64,000 bases of DNA from positions 4,638-68,637 of the forward strand of contig CAZVZC010000001.1 of assembly GCA_964631415.1 (NCBI GenBank), written 5' to 3'. The notes under the pieces were generated by a model that saw nothing but the letters and a program-made list of their open reading frames with translations, had not been told where the DNA came from and did no database searches. How positions within the stretch are numbered: the stretch's first letter is position 1; every line of letters starts with the position of its first letter. Source of the stretch: an uncultured archaeon (GTDB taxonomy: Archaea > Asgardarchaeota > Thorarchaeia > Thorarchaeales > Thorarchaeaceae). Shown in pieces: positions 18,022 to 44,612 of this stretch. The position numbers were made by a program, and so were the translations under genes.

Positions 18022-18636
18022 TCACCAAGTGGGTATCTGTAAGCCCTCCGCCTGTAGAACCCTCTCTATCTCTCCTCTGAGCTCATCGATGTTCGTCCGC
18101 TGCTTAGCTGAGAGAGGGACAATCACCGGGGCAGGTTTCCTCTGCGGAAGCTTGTCATGGAGATACTCAATCTCCACTGCTCTGTTGCCACTCGGCAGCT
18201 TGTCAATCTTGTTAGCGACTACTATGACGTGTTGAGATATCTCAGAAAGGAAGGTATAGAATTCCACATCAATCGGGATTTCTCCCTTGTTCTCCCACCT
18301 CTCGACCAGCTCTCGGAACAGCGAGATGTCTATGATGAGTACCGCCAAGACTAGGCGACTGCTCCAAGCTTCAAGCTTCTGCACGAGTGCAGTCTTTGCT
18401 CGCTCAATGGCCTTCTTCCCCTGTCCAGCCATGTGGCCAAAGCCCGGAGTGTCCACAAAGAGCACGGCTCCGAGATCAATGCTCTTCTCCCATCGTGTGG
18501 TCCCCGGACGCTTGCCCACCTTGAGCTTTCTGCCTGTGAGTGCTCTCATTACACTGCTCTTGCCCACGTTGCTTCGCCCAGCGAATACGACCATGGGTTT
18601 CTGCTTCTCACTCCCAGAATGGTCTTGTTCTAGCAT
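18022..18636 (-). CDS. engB: EngB/YihA-family GTPase
   Basis: GRSNVGKSS, PGTT, DTPGFG, NKID, SAK. Confidence 0.9.
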   Translation of the reverse strand: MLEQDHSGSEKQKPMVVFAGRSNVGKSSVMRALTGRKLKVGKRPGTTRWEKSIDLGAVLFVDTPGFGHMAGQGKKAIERAKTALVQKLEAWSSRLVLAVLIIDISLFRELVERWENKGEIPIDVEFYTFLSEISQHVIVVANKIDKLPSGNRAVEIEYLHDKLPQRKPAPVIVPLSAKQRTNIDELRGEIERVLQAEGLQIPTW

Positions 18637-21448
18637 AGTTCCGCTCCGCCTCTGCAATCTGCCTGAGCAGACTGACTCTGTCTGTCATTCCCGGACGCAA
18701 TATACGAGATGCTGTCATCGGCCCAATTCCGCGTCCGGCTAGTGCTAGTAGGGCAATCCTGCCATACGTTGCCACAAGTTCCGCTGTCAGGACCCCGGCC
18801 GCATAGAGCTTTCTCTTATCATTAGGTACAGCTCCACCGGCTTTGACCAGCTTCATTATTCCCGGGAGCTCTGAGTCATCTGGAGAAACTGCTGCAATCA
18901 TCCTTGATCCACAGCTCGGACAGGACACAGTCTCGTCCAAAGTGGATATCGTCCGAACAGAGTTCCAATCTCCATTGGCCATACACACAAGCCTGAACTG
19001 CTTCGTGAGAAGTCTGGCCTCCATAAGCCGTAGAATCTCGTTCTCATCAGTGATTTCACCCAGCACCTCGAAGCGACTCTTCTCCTCAATTATCAAGCGT
19101 GCAAGTGGCGAGGGTCTATCGGTCACTACAGTATAGACCTCCACAGCTCCAGATGAGATTCGGTCGAACAAATCGACAACCATACTCTCGTCCAGTTTGT
19201 CATGTAGGACCTCTCTCATCGTTTCTTCATAGACAGGCCCGTCCTGAAAGGCATCTATCAGTCGTCTGACAGGGATGTCCTTGACCCTTACGTCTCTTCT
19301 GATCACACCCATTCTACGAGCGACATGAATGAATCGGGAAGCGAATGTCTGGGTGTGTTTCACTGCTAGTCGAAGTATTGTCGAAACCTGATTGCCTGTG
19401 TATCCCTTGAGTGTATCAACAACGCGGGTCGAGTCAAGCCGTGCCGTCGAAGTCAAGAGAATTCGATAAGGGTCTCTCTCAACACCTACATCCACCCCAA
19501 TGCTCGTTGTCAGTAGAGCCGCCACAACAATACCGAGGGCTTCATTCGCCTTAGTACCGAACGGGGTATGAATGACCAAACCCGCCCCGAAGTCCTCGAC
19601 CAAGACAGTGTCCACGGACGGCAGCCTACCCAATGACTCATGGCTTTCCGCCAAGGTTCGAATCACGTAGTCTTGTGTTGTTTCATCTATCCCGTAATGA
19701 GTCTGCAGCCAAGTCCGGGCGTCTGCACCCGGCCTCCTCATTATGGAGTCCCAGAGCTTGGCAACCTCAGATGCAACTTCATACGGGACCGGAATCATCT
19801 CACCAATCCAATGTGGTGCTTCAGTATCAATACTGCTTGCTGGTGAACAGAGGACTTCATCCTCATCCACACTCACAACAGTCCACGACTTACCCCTTAT
19901 GACAAGCAGCGAGCCGCCTTGCAGATTCTCCGTGACGTAGTCCTCGTCTAATACACCTATGGATGTCCTTGTAGTCATGTCGAGGGCGTTCAATTGTCTG
20001 ACATCTGGAATTGTGCTCAGGTGTTCGTAGTAGAAGACCCGTGTCCTCCTGCTAGCCGAAACCTTGGAGCTCTCCACGCGTACAATTCCTCTCTCCGCCA
20101 TGAAGTTCAACACTGAGCCGAGTTCCTCGTCCGTCACCCCGACGAACGGGTACGCTCCGCGTATCAATGCTGTGAGGTCCTTGCGGTCTATCTGACGCAT
20201 GTCGACAACAATCCCGGCTATCTGATGACATAGGACATCCCAAGCCTTCTCGTGTATGCTTGCATCCTCGACCTTGTTCGACAGGGCACGTCTGAGTATC
20301 ACTGCCGACTCAGTCACGTCATCGAGATTTACAGTTGCCAAGAACACCCCCTCCGCGATTCTGTCGAGCCCATGCCCGGCGCGCCCAGTACGCTGTAAGG
20401 CGCGGGCCACTTCTCGAGGGGACGAATACTGGACAACCAAGTCTGCCTGCCCAATATCTATGCCAAGTTCCAGACTTGATGTAGCGATGATGGCCCTTGA
20501 GAGCCCCTGCTTCAAACGAGTTTCAGCAGCCATTCGAGTGTCCTTTGATAGTGACCCATGGTGGACGTCGAACTCAAATGGAGGTTTGAGAGCATGCATC
20601 TTGGCGCCAAGAGCCTCCGCGAACGACCTAGTGTTAGTGAACACTATCGTCGAGTTATGTGATTGCACTAGGTCAACGATTCTTCGAAGCCTCGCTGTGG
20701 AGTTCACGGGATAGGAAATCCGCTTGGAAGTTACAATGTCTTCAGTCGTGGGTTGTGGCATCTCCACCCTCAGGTTCATTTTTCGTAGTCCATACCCCTC
20801 CCACAGAATCCTTGTTTGACCCAATACCCCGCTCAGAAGGGCTACAACGGTCCTTGGGTTTCCGACGGTCGCAGAAAGCCCTATTCGTTGTACTCGCGAC
20901 CCCACGACTTGGTCCAGTCGTTCGAGGCCTAGACTGAGCTGGGTTCCCCTCTTACTGTCGGCCAGTTCGTGTATTTCATCGACAACCACGGCAAACACAG
21001 TCTTAAGGTGATATCTGAGCCTCTGCGCCGGGAGGATTGCCTGAAGCGACTCAGGTGTAGTTATCAACAGGTGGGGTGGAGTGATTGCCTGCTGCCTTCG
21101 CACATACTGTGTTGTATCACCATGTCGGACAGCTACTGTGAAACCCAAGTGGTCACAGAGGGCTTCTATCCGTCCGAACACATCACGGTTGAGCGCTCTC
21201 AGCGGCGTTATGTACAGGATGTGAATCCCAAACAGGTCCTGTTTCAGCCGTTTCTCCTCAAGGAGTTTCAATAGCGGTAAGAGGGCCGCTTCAGTCTTGC
21301 CGCTGCCAGTGGGGGCAAGCAAGAGCATATTGCTCCGCTCAGCCAGTATTGTGGGAATTGCTCTCTCTTGGATCGGCGTGGGCGTCTGGATGCCCCGGGT
21401 TGACAGGAATCCAGAGATCTCCGGACCTAGAGAATCAAAGACATTCAT
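18608..21448 (-). CDS. lhr: Lhr-family SF2 helicase (archaeal Lhr with C-terminal Cys-rich domain)
   Basis: APTGSGKT, TPLRALN, DEIH, SAT, HHGS, TSSLELGIDIG, QRTGRAGH, STIPD. Confidence 0.93.
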   Translation of the reverse strand: MNVFDSLGPEISGFLSTRGIQTPTPIQERAIPTILAERSNMLLLAPTGSGKTEAALLPLLKLLEEKRLKQDLFGIHILYITPLRALNRDVFGRIEALCDHLGFTVAVRHGDTTQYVRRQQAITPPHLLITTPESLQAILPAQRLRYHLKTVFAVVVDEIHELADSKRGTQLSLGLERLDQVVGSRVQRIGLSATVGNPRTVVALLSGVLGQTRILWEGYGLRKMNLRVEMPQPTTEDIVTSKRISYPVNSTARLRRIVDLVQSHNSTIVFTNTRSFAEALGAKMHALKPPFEFDVHHGSLSKDTRMAAETRLKQGLSRAIIATSSLELGIDIGQADLVVQYSSPREVARALQRTGRAGHGLDRIAEGVFLATVNLDDVTESAVILRRALSNKVEDASIHEKAWDVLCHQIAGIVVDMRQIDRKDLTALIRGAYPFVGVTDEELGSVLNFMAERGIVRVESSKVSASRRTRVFYYEHLSTIPDVRQLNALDMTTRTSIGVLDEDYVTENLQGGSLLVIRGKSWTVVSVDEDEVLCSPASSIDTEAPHWIGEMIPVPYEVASEVAKLWDSIMRRPGADARTWLQTHYGIDETTQDYVIRTLAESHESLGRLPSVDTVLVEDFGAGLVIHTPFGTKANEALGIVVAALLTTSIGVDVGVERDPYRILLTSTARLDSTRVVDTLKGYTGNQVSTILRLAVKHTQTFASRFIHVARRMGVIRRDVRVKDIPVRRLIDAFQDGPVYEETMREVLHDKLDESMVVDLFDRISSGAVEVYTVVTDRPSPLARLIIEEKSRFEVLGEITDENEILRLMEARLLTKQFRLVCMANGDWNSVRTISTLDETVSCPSCGSRMIAAVSPDDSELPGIMKLVKAGGAVPNDKRKLYAAGVLTAELVATYGRIALLALAGRGIGPMTASRILRPGMTDRVSLLRQIAEAERNYARTRPFWE

Positions 21449-21684
21449 CCAAAGGGCTTCCTTTGTCGAAGTGTGTGACGAATCTCGTTCACTAGGATGC
21501 GGATGTCAGTTCTAAGCGTGACATCTGCCTCACGCGCTCTGTCTTCAAGCAGTTCTATGGCCTCATTTGGAGAGGAGGCTTGCTTCATTATTCTCTCGAC
21601 CAATGACTGCATCACATCTAGGTTCGATATGTGTGGTGCAGACCTCTCAAATGCCTGTTGGATTAATGCCTCTAAGTTCATCAT
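21445..21684 (-). CDS. Small helical hypothetical protein coupled to lhr
   Basis: 79 aa; ATGA overlap with the lhr start. Confidence 0.7.
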   Translation of the reverse strand: MMNLEALIQQAFERSAPHISNLDVMQSLVERIMKQASSPNEAIELLEDRAREADVTLRTDIRILVNEIRHTLRQRKPFG

Positions 21685-21704
21685 GAGGTTGTTTCAGACG
21701 TGCC

Positions 21705-21815
21705 CTACTCTTCCTCTTCCTCACCGTATGCGACGTAGCCCAATACAAGGAGAAGGGCCACAATTCCCAACACATACAAGACGATGTCGATGACTGGGAT
21801 TATGCTTGTCTGCAT
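21705..21815 (-). CDS. 36-aa single-TM microprotein (Ost4-like?)
   Basis: MQTSIIPVIDIVLYVLGIVALLLVLGYVAYGEEEEE*; fills the intergenic gap; TATA about 29 nt upstream. Confidence 0.65.
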   Translation of the reverse strand: MQTSIIPVIDIVLYVLGIVALLLVLGYVAYGEEEEE

Positions 21816-21843: not shown

Positions 21844-21851
21844 ACTTATAA
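21844..21851 (-). promoter_or_regulatory. TATA box of the microprotein-hypothetical-lhr-engB unit
   Basis: TTATAAGT positioned for a nearly leaderless transcript starting near 21820. Confidence 0.5.
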
Positions 21852-21882
21852 TCATTGCTGACTGAAGGGCTCTGTACTAAGA

Positions 21883-22134
21883 CTACTCCTCTGTCTTGCT
21901 GCCTTCATAGAACCGGTCGATGAAACTGCCATAGACGTCCACAGGCTCGGTGAGCGAATTGACTTCGTCGATAGTCATCTCAAGTCCGCAGGAGCCACAC
22001 TTGACCGTTGCCACTTTTTTCTCCCTGAGCAGCTCTATCTTGATTGCCGCATTACCACAGTCTGGACATTGATAGACATCAGGGATTCGCTTCTGCGGTC
22101 GTCGTCGAATCTTCTGCCTTCTTCTTCTTCCCAT
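21883..22134 (-). CDS. elf1: Transcription elongation factor Elf1
   Basis: MGRRRR basic tail, CPDC...CGSC, EPVDVYGSFID. Confidence 0.92.
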   Translation of the reverse strand: MGRRRRQKIRRRPQKRIPDVYQCPDCGNAAIKIELLREKKVATVKCGSCGLEMTIDEVNSLTEPVDVYGSFIDRFYEGSKTEE

Positions 22135-37454: not shown

Positions 37455-37868
37455 TTGCCTGTATGGTGGCCGCGATTCATAATTAAGCCCCAAGTACGAC
37501 TCACGAGGCCCCGGTTTGGAATGCCCGCGCGTCCTCCTGACATAGTCCTCTTTGGAGGACTGTTGCTGGCCATCCTGTTTATTATGGGTGGCAACATATA
37601 CACGTTAGTCAAGACTCCGCCTGCGATTGCTGGTGACTCATCAGGAAACCCAATCCTTATTGCACCAGGCATTGATATTCAGCTTGGACTAGAAGGAATT
37701 GTGGCCTCGGTTGTCATTTTCATTGGAACCATTGGTATTGGTCTCGTCTATCTGTCCTCAAAGTATGTCTTCCAGCCTGGCTATGCAACACGCCTGATGG
37801 TTCTCGGTGCAATACTTGCAGGTGGCGCATTCTTAGTCATAAGCTACCTCTATGGTCTTAAGACATAG
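37455..37868 (+). CDS. OSTC/DC2-like (OST3/OST6 family) oligosaccharyltransferase subunit
   Basis: Three TMs; MGGNIYTLVKTPP...QLGLEGIVAS...IG pattern; GAGGT before TTG 37455. Confidence 0.75.
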   Translation: MPVWWPRFIIKPQVRLTRPRFGMPARPPDIVLFGGLLLAILFIMGGNIYTLVKTPPAIAGDSSGNPILIAPGIDIQLGLEGIVASVVIFIGTIGIGLVYLSSKYVFQPGYATRLMVLGAILAGGAFLVISYLYGLKT

Positions 37869-41819: not shown

Positions 41820-44612
41820 ATGCCGAGCCTGAGTCACTTCAAGAGATCCGCTAGCAGGTTTCTTCGTCAAGTCTTTCACAAACCAAAAGCAAAGATATCT
41901 CGAGGGTCGGTCCTTCTGGTCGTTGCTCTTTGTATCACAGTTATTGCTGCTATAGCGGTTCGTCTAGAGCCGCTGCTCGACTCACAACCGATTGTCCATG
42001 AGTTTGACTCGTGGTATCAGCTAAGAGTGACTCAGTATGTTGCTGCAAATGGTTATGCTGCATTCTTCAGCTGGTATGACCACATGAGTTGGGTGCCCTT
42101 CGGTCGTGACATAGCACTCTCAACCTACATTGGTGTGCCGTTCACAGCCGCCACATTCTACTTCCTTCTTAATGGAATAGGTATCAGTGTAGATTTGCTT
42201 GTTGTCTGCATCATGATGGCTGGGTTCATGGGCGGCTTCGCGACACTGGCCACATTCTTCTTGGGCAAGGAGTTGTCGAACAAGACAGTTGGACTCCTGA
42301 GTGCTCTCTTCGTGGCATTCATGCCTGCATATATCCAGAGGACAACAGCCGGCTTTTTTGACAACGAGTCTGTAGGTGTCTTTGCCATTGTGCTTGCTCT
42401 CTTGTTTTTCATGCGTTCTCTAAAGACCGGTTCTCTGCCTTCTGCAGTCGCTGCAGGCTTATCCTTGGGCTATTTACAACTGTCTTGGGGAGCAGCAGAC
42501 TTTCTTACGGACCTGCTTGCTCTCTATGCGCTCTTCATGTTAGTCGCAGGTCGTTATAGCCGTCGTCTTCTTTCAAGCTACCTGATCACAGTGAGTCTCG
42601 GCTTCTTCATTGCTAATCTGCTTCCTCGTAACAGTCTCCTAAGCTCAGGAGCGCTCACTTCTCTCACATTCCTTGCTCCGGTAGGGATGGGTGTCTTGCT
42701 TGCAGCTTATGAGGTCTGGCTGCGAGTTTCAAAGTATCGCGAGGCGACAGCAGGTGCACTGGCTCCTCACATGAAGCCAATCTTGCTTGGGATGATTGCT
42801 CCAGTCGTTGGCGTGACTGCCTACTTCGTGTATGCAGCCAGTCAAGGCCTGCAAATCATAACAACGAGTTCTAACCCCATAACTTTCGTTGGCGGCAAAT
42901 TCCTTGCTGTCATCAATCCCTTCTACCGACTTGACCAGCGTATCTTTGCATCCGTTGCTGAACATCTCCCTGCTCCTTGGGCGAGTTTCTATCAGACACT
43001 GATTGTGCTGATATTCTTCTTCCCGGTAGGTATGTACTTCCTGTTCAAGAGGGGTCGCGATGAAGACTGGTTGGTCGTCCTGTTCGGAGCCACTGCTGTA
43101 TACTTCACGGGCAGCATGATTCGACTGGGTCTGATTCTGGCACCAGCAGTTGCACTGCTTGCTGCTGTCGCCGTGAATGGTGTCCTGACACCATTCGCAA
43201 AGGTTGTTTCTCAGAAGTCGGTCTTCGAACGTCGCAGGTTTCGAATCAGCTCGTCCCTTACTTCAGAACACACAATTGCTGTGTTCGCATTCATAGGACT
43301 GCTGCTCTCGGTCAATGTCTATCTGGGTGTCCAGTACGCCGTCAGCGTAGGTGCTCCCGAGTTCGCGCCCTCAAAGCTCACCGACACGACGCAGTTCCTT
43401 GACTGGCAGACCGCAATGACATACGTCCGCAATGTTGTTCCTAAGTCGGCAACAATAGCCAGCTGGTGGGACTATGGATACTGGATAACGTGTGCCGGAG
43501 GGGGACGGTCGGTTGTGGACAATGCTACCTTCAATGCCACACAAATAGCTCTTGTGGGCTATGCCCTGATGGCTCTCAATCTCACTGAGTCGCTCAGAAC
43601 CTTCAGGCTGTGGAATGCAACACATGTGCTGGTCTACTGGGGGCACGAGATTTCGTCATTTGGCGGGGACGAGGGGAAGTGGCCTTGGATGGTCCGCATA
43701 GCTGAAGACTATCTCGGATCGTCAGTCATAGACGACGCCACATATCTGGGGGACAATCCCACGACCACGACAACAATCGAAACCGATTACACCCTGGCTG
43801 GTTTCTATTCCTCGACCCTGTACAAACTGTTATCATATGGTGAGCCACTGACCGAAACCGAAGCTGACGAGTTGGGTCTACCTAGTTTAAGGAAAGGGAT
43901 TGACTTCTACACGCCTTCAGGATACTCTTATCCAATCAGTTATGCGGGTGACACGGCATGGACTTCTCATATGCCCACCGACCTACATGGGGCATTCAAG
44001 GGTCCCTACTACAGCTCAGATTATGGTTTGGTCAAGATCTACGAAATTGACTACACCATGTATGAGCAGTACCTCAATAGGACCGCATCTCAGTGGGCCC
44101 CCAAGGTGGGCTCCTTGACAGGTGTCAAAGCTAACGGCAATCTCTCTGCCAGTGAGAAGGCCTTCCAGAGCTTCGATGGTATTCTTGGAGGCGGCTATGA
44201 TGCCAAAGTCTATGTACAAGCCAACTCCACACACATGTACTTTGGTCTTGAGATGGACGATTACCAAGTCGGCAGTGACGCCTTTGGCATACAGATTGCG
44301 CCACTCGGCCCGGTCACGACATCAGACCTCCGCATAGTGAACTACGCAGGCCATCAGTTCTATGACGGTCACATTGACTACAACGGTGATTGGACCTTCG
44401 ACTCAAGCGGAGCTAATGCAACGTTGTTTGGAACAGCGGAGAATGTCACAGAGCTGATATTTCCGCTCAACTCTCTCGATTCTCAGGATTTGGACCTGAA
44501 ACCGGGAATGAACTATCAGATACGATTGCTGTTCTGGGACAACGTTGATTCAGGGGAACCAACACTTGTGACCGAGTGGCAGACCATCTGGGTACCGGTG
44601 AGCTTGTACTGA
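41820..44612 (+). CDS. aglB: Oligosaccharyltransferase catalytic subunit AglB/STT3 with extra C-terminal beta-sandwich
   Basis: HEFD, DNE, SVAEH, WWDYG, GDEGKWPWMVRI; multiple TMs. Confidence 0.94.
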   Translation: MPSLSHFKRSASRFLRQVFHKPKAKISRGSVLLVVALCITVIAAIAVRLEPLLDSQPIVHEFDSWYQLRVTQYVAANGYAAFFSWYDHMSWVPFGRDIALSTYIGVPFTAATFYFLLNGIGISVDLLVVCIMMAGFMGGFATLATFFLGKELSNKTVGLLSALFVAFMPAYIQRTTAGFFDNESVGVFAIVLALLFFMRSLKTGSLPSAVAAGLSLGYLQLSWGAADFLTDLLALYALFMLVAGRYSRRLLSSYLITVSLGFFIANLLPRNSLLSSGALTSLTFLAPVGMGVLLAAYEVWLRVSKYREATAGALAPHMKPILLGMIAPVVGVTAYFVYAASQGLQIITTSSNPITFVGGKFLAVINPFYRLDQRIFASVAEHLPAPWASFYQTLIVLIFFFPVGMYFLFKRGRDEDWLVVLFGATAVYFTGSMIRLGLILAPAVALLAAVAVNGVLTPFAKVVSQKSVFERRRFRISSSLTSEHTIAVFAFIGLLLSVNVYLGVQYAVSVGAPEFAPSKLTDTTQFLDWQTAMTYVRNVVPKSATIASWWDYGYWITCAGGGRSVVDNATFNATQIALVGYALMALNLTESLRTFRLWNATHVLVYWGHEISSFGGDEGKWPWMVRIAEDYLGSSVIDDATYLGDNPTTTTTIETDYTLAGFYSSTLYKLLSYGEPLTETEADELGLPSLRKGIDFYTPSGYSYPISYAGDTAWTSHMPTDLHGAFKGPYYSSDYGLVKIYEIDYTMYEQYLNRTASQWAPKVGSLTGVKANGNLSASEKAFQSFDGILGGGYDAKVYVQANSTHMYFGLEMDDYQVGSDAFGIQIAPLGPVTTSDLRIVNYAGHQFYDGHIDYNGDWTFDSSGANATLFGTAENVTELIFPLNSLDSQDLDLKPGMNYQIRLLFWDNVDSGEPTLVTEWQTIWVPVSLY

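Follow-up and report, generated by a model that had tools for sequence, protein, structure and literature searches.

The minus strand of a 64,000-nt stretch of an Asgard (Thorarchaeota) archaeal genome (contig CAZVZC010000001.1, assembly GCA_964631415.1; hereafter the window) carries a 36-codon open reading frame, the micro-ORF, which is a genuine conserved gene under purifying selection and whose place in its operon is conserved as well. We propose that its product, a peptide with a single transmembrane (TM) helix, could be a small Ost4-like accessory subunit of the oligosaccharyltransferase (OST) AglB/STT3, and we give this proposal an even chance of being right. Docking of the peptide on AglB is only predicted, from a co-folding model, and we infer its common descent with Ost4. 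The coordinates of the micro-ORF and of the other features considered here are collected in Table 1.

Table 1. Position of the features discussed, in the numbering of the window.
Feature	Position	Strand	Remarks
Micro-ORF	21705..21815	(-)	36 codons + TAG stop; ATG 21815-21813, TAG 21707-21705
TATA box ATTATAAG of the micro-ORF promoter	21845..21852	(-)	inside the conserved motif TCAGcAAtgaTTATAAG
Elf1-type zinc-ribbon transcription elongation factor	21883..22134	(-)	directly upstream of the micro-ORF; PF05129, E 2.9e-19
Spacer, micro-ORF stop to p79 start	21685..21704	(-)	20 nt; no TATA box, no T-run terminator
p79, 79-aa soluble four-helix bundle, PF2048.1-like	21445..21684	(-)	synteny, structure model
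Lhr-type DEXH helicase gene	18608..21448	(-)	NCBIfam PRK13767, E 1.5e-149
EngB GTPase gene	18022..18657	(-)	directly downstream of lhr
DC2-like ORF (putative)	37455-37868		first reading of the window
AglB/STT3, predicted partner	41820..44612	(+)	Pfam PF02516, E 1.9e-52

The micro-ORF is a conserved gene

The original prediction described an unlisted 36-aa ORF with a single TM segment and a TATA box upstream. It is present as described, on the minus strand, and on reading the sequence the 3' end of ATTATAAG lies about 30 nt ahead of the ATG. This spacing predicts that the micro-ORF mRNA is leaderless or near-leaderless. A longer frame of 46 aa can be opened from a GTG at 21845. This frame begins right after the TATA box, which its start codon abuts, and its additional residues are unconserved, so that we retained the ATG at 21815 as the start. 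When the 46-aa frame was used as the query of a protein homologue search, it returned just two close relatives, both unnamed. The micro-ORF is absent from the annotation track of the host genome; relatives of it, which span 33-44 aa, are called as protein in some public records.

A six-frame search recovered the peptide in 24/24 genomes of the same GTDB family, and a family profile found it in 75/76 other genomes of the host's family, f1 (E 1e-8 to 1e-20), almost always as a single copy. The f1 copies are frames of 33-39 aa that run from a conserved Met-Gln start to an acidic G-E-E-E-E-E tail followed by the stop codon. Every one of them is preceded, at the same distance, by the motif TCAGcAAtgaTTATAAG, which is at least 80% conserved over 33 distinct loci. 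Among the 33 distinct genes, the mean pairwise difference at codon positions 1, 2 and 3 amounts to 0.355, 0.207 and 0.627, respectively, and the median dN/dS is 0.19 (159 usable pairs, with dS near saturation).

The peptide itself consists of a single hydrophobic helix, at approximately residues 5-30, and of a tail of five Glu. In the alignment of the peptides (A1), residues L13, G17, A20, L21, Y27 and G31 are invariant or near-invariant, and they fall on one face of the helix. After the invariant Tyr27 come V/T/S/M-A/V/I-Y/W-G and a series of Glu residues, with no His and no basic residue in this region.

Occurrence in other Asgard families

A search across Asgard genomes had been put forward with the original prediction as a way to find out whether the ORF is conserved, and conserved it is: besides the nearly complete coverage of f1, diverged copies were detected in 10 further families. 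These weaker profile matches are small frames in which a hydrophobic helix ending in (I/L)(L/I)LAY is followed by 3-4 residues and an acidic tail. When single small frames at E ≤ 5e-4 with the cross-family profile A3 were counted, 11 out of 30 sampled Asgard families turned out to have the peptide family, namely f1 (75/76 genomes with a match), f2 (1/1), f3 (2/4), f7 (1/5), f9 (10/68), f13 (3/3), f15 (3/4), f16 (4/5), f19 (5/6), f21 (2/3) and f22 (15/21). The genomes searched from f5, f12, f14, f24 and f27 gave no match to this profile. Across families, the most conserved feature of A3 is the terminal Glu run.

When A3 was compared with 1.84 billion representative proteins, 23 clusters were retrieved, all of 29-53 aa and all built on the same design as the micro-ORF peptide; none of the 23 is Ost4-like in the sense of having a YH motif and a basic tail. 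Few single-TM microproteins of about 35 aa are Asgard-wide, and the peptide family is among them. In f22 (L067-L072), the peptide has a conserved TTG start located after a GGAG and a much longer acidic tail, NEEEEDLEEELEI.

Sequence comparison with Ost4

The likeness to Ost4 was originally put forward on the basis of length and residue pattern. For the comparison, we took both the human and the yeast sequences from the PDB, the human OST4 sequence being identical to that of entry 2LAT. The part of the claim that concerns the 36-aa length, the single TM helix and the register of a Gly and a Tyr holds; the acidic tail, the lack of a YH motif and the silence of the Pfam model of Ost4 go against it. 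Indeed, PF10215, whose gathering score is 25 bits, gave no match at E ≤ 10 for the micro-ORF or for 16 members of its family. A six-frame search with the same model over 301 Asgard genomes yielded nothing above the cut-off, and the micro-ORF was not among the weak matches; noise-level matches to PF10215 were found in 10/14 control genomes. Similarly, the profile of the peptide family retrieved no Ost4 chain from the PDB at E ≤ 10, and the ESM Atlas returned nothing for the micro-ORF peptide. Searches of Pfam, NCBIfam and PDB sequences with the peptide or its profile recognised no family. They gave only weak matches of TM composition, to DUF4500 (5/16 members, best E 0.0017), SecD/F, CP43 and a TM segment of an efflux pump (E 0.23).

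We also searched in the reverse direction. An HMM made from human and yeast Ost4 ranked the micro-ORF 269th among the 51,715 ORFs (stop to stop) found in the host, with 2.2 bits, and the top matches of this HMM in the host genome are not credible.

The comparison of profiles, also suggested with the original prediction, came out on both sides. Aligned by hhalign with human and yeast Ost4 (two sequences only), A3 scored 14.2, above all of 200 column-shuffled controls (median 6.5, maximum 12.3); the probability is 4.9%, PF10215 gives no match, and the P value of 0.008 is inflated, since the micro-ORF had been picked out for its resemblance to Ost4 in the first place. In the resulting register, residues 10-27 of the peptide lie on residues 8-25 of human OST4, with G17 on G15 and Y27 on Y25. 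The profile-profile likeness to Ost4 appears weak and order-specific, and falls in the expected G-x9-Y register; we consider it suggestive. Sequence homology of the peptide to Ost4 is unproven.

An alternative Ost4 candidate was encountered in another Asgard family and was rejected. This 38-aa intergenic ORF of genome G163 (L088:1480-1593, plus strand) is the best small-frame match to PF10215. Its TM segment, LGMSLFLLIVL, is nearly identical to the LGVSLFLLVVL of human OST4, and it has a basic tail. Since it is found in only one genus (G163, G129), we set it aside as an ORF that is either very narrowly distributed or due to chance.

The remark, made at the outset, that no archaeal Ost4 was known is out of date. 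Eme et al. 2023 (Nature 618:992; PMC10307638) report that most classes of Asgard archaea have homologues of both Ost4 and Ost5, and of OST subunits their supplementary discussion mentions only Ost5 and Wbp1. A 2024 study on translocon proteins of Prometheoarchaeum lists only OST1, OST3/6 and STT3 (PMC11417166).

Predicted complex with AglB

AglB is the only STT3-family gene of the host genome. We co-folded its residues 1-560, that is the membrane domain up to the WWDYG motif, with the peptide, using a 20-row alignment for AglB (A2) and alignment A1 for the peptide. This check had been proposed with the original prediction, and the pair passed it, the peptide being placed by the model in the position and orientation of Ost4. 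The co-fold score was 0.69 (0.67-0.71 in three runs) against 0.00 for the best of three controls; the replacement partners in two of these controls folded with low confidence (pLDDT 31 and 44) and were perhaps not membrane helices, so that their 0.00 is uninformative with respect to other TM helices. In the calibration of the method, the mark applied is reached by 58/80 solved complexes and by 2/110 mismatched pairs, figures that are a rough guide only because our own alignments were used. At least 83% of the contacts were common to the runs, and the pLDDT of the partner was at least 73.

In the model, residues 5-32 of the peptide contact AglB residues 28-54 (TM1), 155-167, 453-464 (TM12) and 485-508 (TM13). 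The segment 28-54 is the first hydrophobic one past the basic N-terminal tail of AglB, and the segment 485-508 is the last one before WWDYG. Residues 16-17 of the peptide are in contact with AglB 39-43, and residues 23-26 with AglB 32-36. These pairs of contacts would make the peptide helix antiparallel to TM1, with its N-terminus out, its C-terminus in and its acidic tail at the cytoplasmic face. According to a review of the yeast OST structures, Ost4 sits between TMH1 and TMH13 of Stt3, and residues 18-24 of Ost4 are critical; charged substitutions there destabilise the Stt3-Ost4-Ost3 subcomplex (PMC7226087). In the hhalign register, they correspond to residues 20-26 of the peptide, which lie inside the predicted AglB interface.

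On the other hand, STT3-Ost4 complexes have already been solved, and the co-fold pass may for this reason reflect the memory of the model and not binding. Conservation of the AglB residues in the predicted interface does not exceed that of the other residues of these helices, a comparison of low power. With an equally low power, no covariation between the peptide and AglB was seen at the predicted contacts over 14 pairs (mean MI 0.196, background 0.199). Finally, we compared the acidic tail of the peptide with the basic N-terminal tail of AglB in six families and saw no consistent relation; in f22, the longest of the acidic peptide tails goes with the least basic AglB tail.

Gene neighbourhood and alternative roles

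The view that the micro-ORF is the first gene of the lhr unit is borne out by the short spacer that separates it from p79, which holds neither a TATA box nor a terminator, and by the overlap of the p79 stop codon with the Lhr start by ATGA. The sigma-70/terminator scan is uninformative for an archaeon and served only to confirm that no hairpin/T-run terminator follows the micro-ORF. In two relatives, p79 and Lhr even share one open frame, without a stop in G008 and with one in-frame TAG in G015. The spacer between micro-ORF and p79 measures 3-25 nt (median 20) in 24/32 distinct f1 loci and often contains a GGAG/GGGAG-like motif.

The adjacency of micro-ORF and p79 is also seen in f2, f7 and f15, with Lhr next in f15, and in f19 a 105-aa ORF that weakly matches a four-helix domain (Cbl_N) comes next downstream. 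In f13, the micro-ORF is near RPA and Elf1 and is not beside p79; nor is it beside p79 in f21, or in f22, where a HerA-like ATPase gene and the gene of ribosomal protein S3Ae flank it. Variants of the arrangement exist: G025 has the order micro-ORF, p79, EngB, without Lhr, and in f2 and f7 (L043-L045) a gene for a SWIM-zinc-finger-like protein (CxC...CxH) replaces Elf1 upstream of the micro-ORF/p79 pair. None of the conserved neighbours of the micro-ORF (p79, Lhr, Elf1, RPA, S3Ae) is a glycosylation gene. In many f1 genomes (e.g. G000, G001, G002, G010, G013, G019, G020, G023), the micro-ORF and AglB share a contig, at a distance of about 20 kb, which we read as general large-scale synteny and not as linkage.

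The structure of p79 is modelled with confidence as a four-helix bundle (pLDDT 92). Its best PDB match is 6E4J, the NMR structure of PF2048.1 from Pyrococcus (TM 0.76/0.83, rmsd 0.9 Å, 25% identity). The papers retrieved on PF2048.1 treat it solely as a test case for NMR and describe no function, and the public homologues of p79 carry PF27357. In the window, p79 is translationally coupled to Lhr, and it may be an uncharacterised accessory module of Lhr.

These data provide the main rival to an Ost4-like role, namely a lineage-specific partnership, at the membrane, of the peptide with p79 and, via p79, with Lhr. Its cytoplasmic acidic tail could then, for instance, tether p79 to the membrane or regulate it there, and the likeness to Ost4 would be coincidental. 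The micro-ORF stands 3-25 nt ahead of a p79 homologue in f1, the pair is adjacent in f2, f7 and f15, with the 105-aa Cbl_N-like neighbour of f19 as a further case, and p79 in turn overlaps Lhr or is fused to it; adjacency across such divergent families usually means a shared function. We nevertheless hold this partnership to be unlikely, as the micro-ORF is found away from p79 in f13, f21 and f22, the relatives of p79, such as PF2048.1 of Pyrococcus, are seemingly soluble, and the conserved face of the peptide lies within the membrane and not in the tail.

One would also wonder whether the peptide could be the small subunit or regulator of another membrane complex, such as the translocon, a transporter or a respiratory complex. 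Many single-TM microproteins of bacteria and eukaryotes act in this way, and the peptide is a generic one, with one conserved small-residue face of the helix (A1), no recognised family and weak matches to unrelated TM families (DUF4500, efflux pump). However, no alternative partner is suggested by the gene neighbourhood, and AglB, the one partner tried, passed the co-fold with controls at 0.00, which leaves this idea distinctly unlikely.

Another hypothesis lies in the position of the micro-ORF as first cistron, 3-25 nt from p79. It could mainly be a translated uORF, the translation of which, possibly slowed at the Glu run that is so well conserved in A3, controls p79/Lhr, while the peptide has no role of its own. 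We judge this to be very improbable: the helix is under purifying selection and has specific invariant residues (G17, A20, L21, Y27), the gene is found away from p79/Lhr in other families, and many of the spacers have a GGAG-like ribosome-binding motif of their own.

As for a chance ORF in an intergenic promoter region, which a short, hydrophobic frame left uncalled in the annotation track might well be, the conservation data refute it for practical purposes and its probability is negligible, since frame, start, stop and promoter are kept in 75/76 f1 genomes, relatives exist in 10 other families, some public records call the frame as a protein, dN/dS is 0.19 and third positions vary three times as much as second positions.

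Proposed function of the peptide and its implications

To come back to the Ost4-like proposal, the micro-ORF would have a TATA promoter of its own and would be the leading cistron of a message that continues with p79 and Lhr. The helix of the peptide would insert into the membrane with the N-terminus out and the C-terminus in. Its small-residue face (G17, A20, L21, L24, Y27) would pack in the groove formed by TM1 and TM13 of AglB, with a contribution of TM12, and the Glu-rich tail would come to lie at the cytoplasmic face, beside the basic N-terminal segment of AglB. We infer that the peptide would stabilise AglB or recruit Ost3/DC2. In eukaryotes, Ost4 stabilises Stt3 and helps to recruit Ost3/6.

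To our knowledge, every archaeal oligosaccharyltransferase characterised so far consists of a single subunit, and an OST of several subunits is seen as an elaboration of eukaryotes. If the peptide does occupy the Ost4 groove of AglB, it would define a concrete and testable minimal archaeal OST subcomplex. One could go further and assume that the peptide family is the true evolutionary precursor of Ost4, that a multi-subunit Asgard OST core made of AglB/STT3, the Ost4-like peptide and an Ost3/DC2-like protein existed before eukaryogenesis, and that the gene was long kept as the leading cistron of the p79/Lhr message. We regard this scenario as possible, if rather doubtful; were it true, the glycosylation machinery would be tied, in an unexplained way, to an operon of genome maintenance.

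Genes like the micro-ORF are easily missed, as it falls below the gene-caller cut-offs in the host genome. If the Ost4-like proposal is right, the present data would put sequence, promoter and operon detail behind a claim to which Eme et al. 2023 (PMC10307638) give one line. The value of our proposal is moderate, because the idea has already been published and the evidence that counts most comes from structure prediction, which perhaps draws on solved eukaryotic complexes.

Comparison with known systems

The closest parallel can be drawn with Ost4 itself (PF10215; PDB 1RKL and 2LAT; complexes 6EZN, 6C26, 6S7O and 6S7T). Both peptides are 36-37 aa long and have one TM helix, and in both a Gly and a Tyr are spaced ten residues apart, G17/Y27 in the micro-ORF peptide and G15/Y25 in human and yeast Ost4. 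They also share a short Met-x-Ser/Thr-acidic N-terminus. The peptide is moreover predicted to have its N-terminus out and its C-terminus in, as in Ost4, and to sit against the catalytic subunit, of the STT3 family, between TM1 and TM13. In contrast, there is no significant sequence or profile match between the two. The peptide ends in five Glu (GEEEEE), Ost4 in a short tail that is polar or basic. Where the Ost4 helix closes on the cytosolic side with a conserved Tyr-His, the peptide has a Tyr without the His. The peptide is also encoded in a helicase operon, and its binding to AglB is a prediction. The Asgard Ost4 homologues of Eme et al. 2023 are likewise claimed counterparts of Ost4 and may or may not be the same peptides; they are claimed for most Asgard classes, and the peptide family occurs in 11 of 30 sampled families.

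A second parallel concerns a functional class. KdpF, AcrZ, CydX and sarcolipin are single-TM microproteins that act as partners of larger membrane proteins, and their partners have been shown experimentally. The micro-ORF peptide has no sequence relationship to them, and its partner is a predicted one. It resembles them in its general build, with about 30-40 aa, one conserved helix face and a predicted packing on a multi-pass partner.
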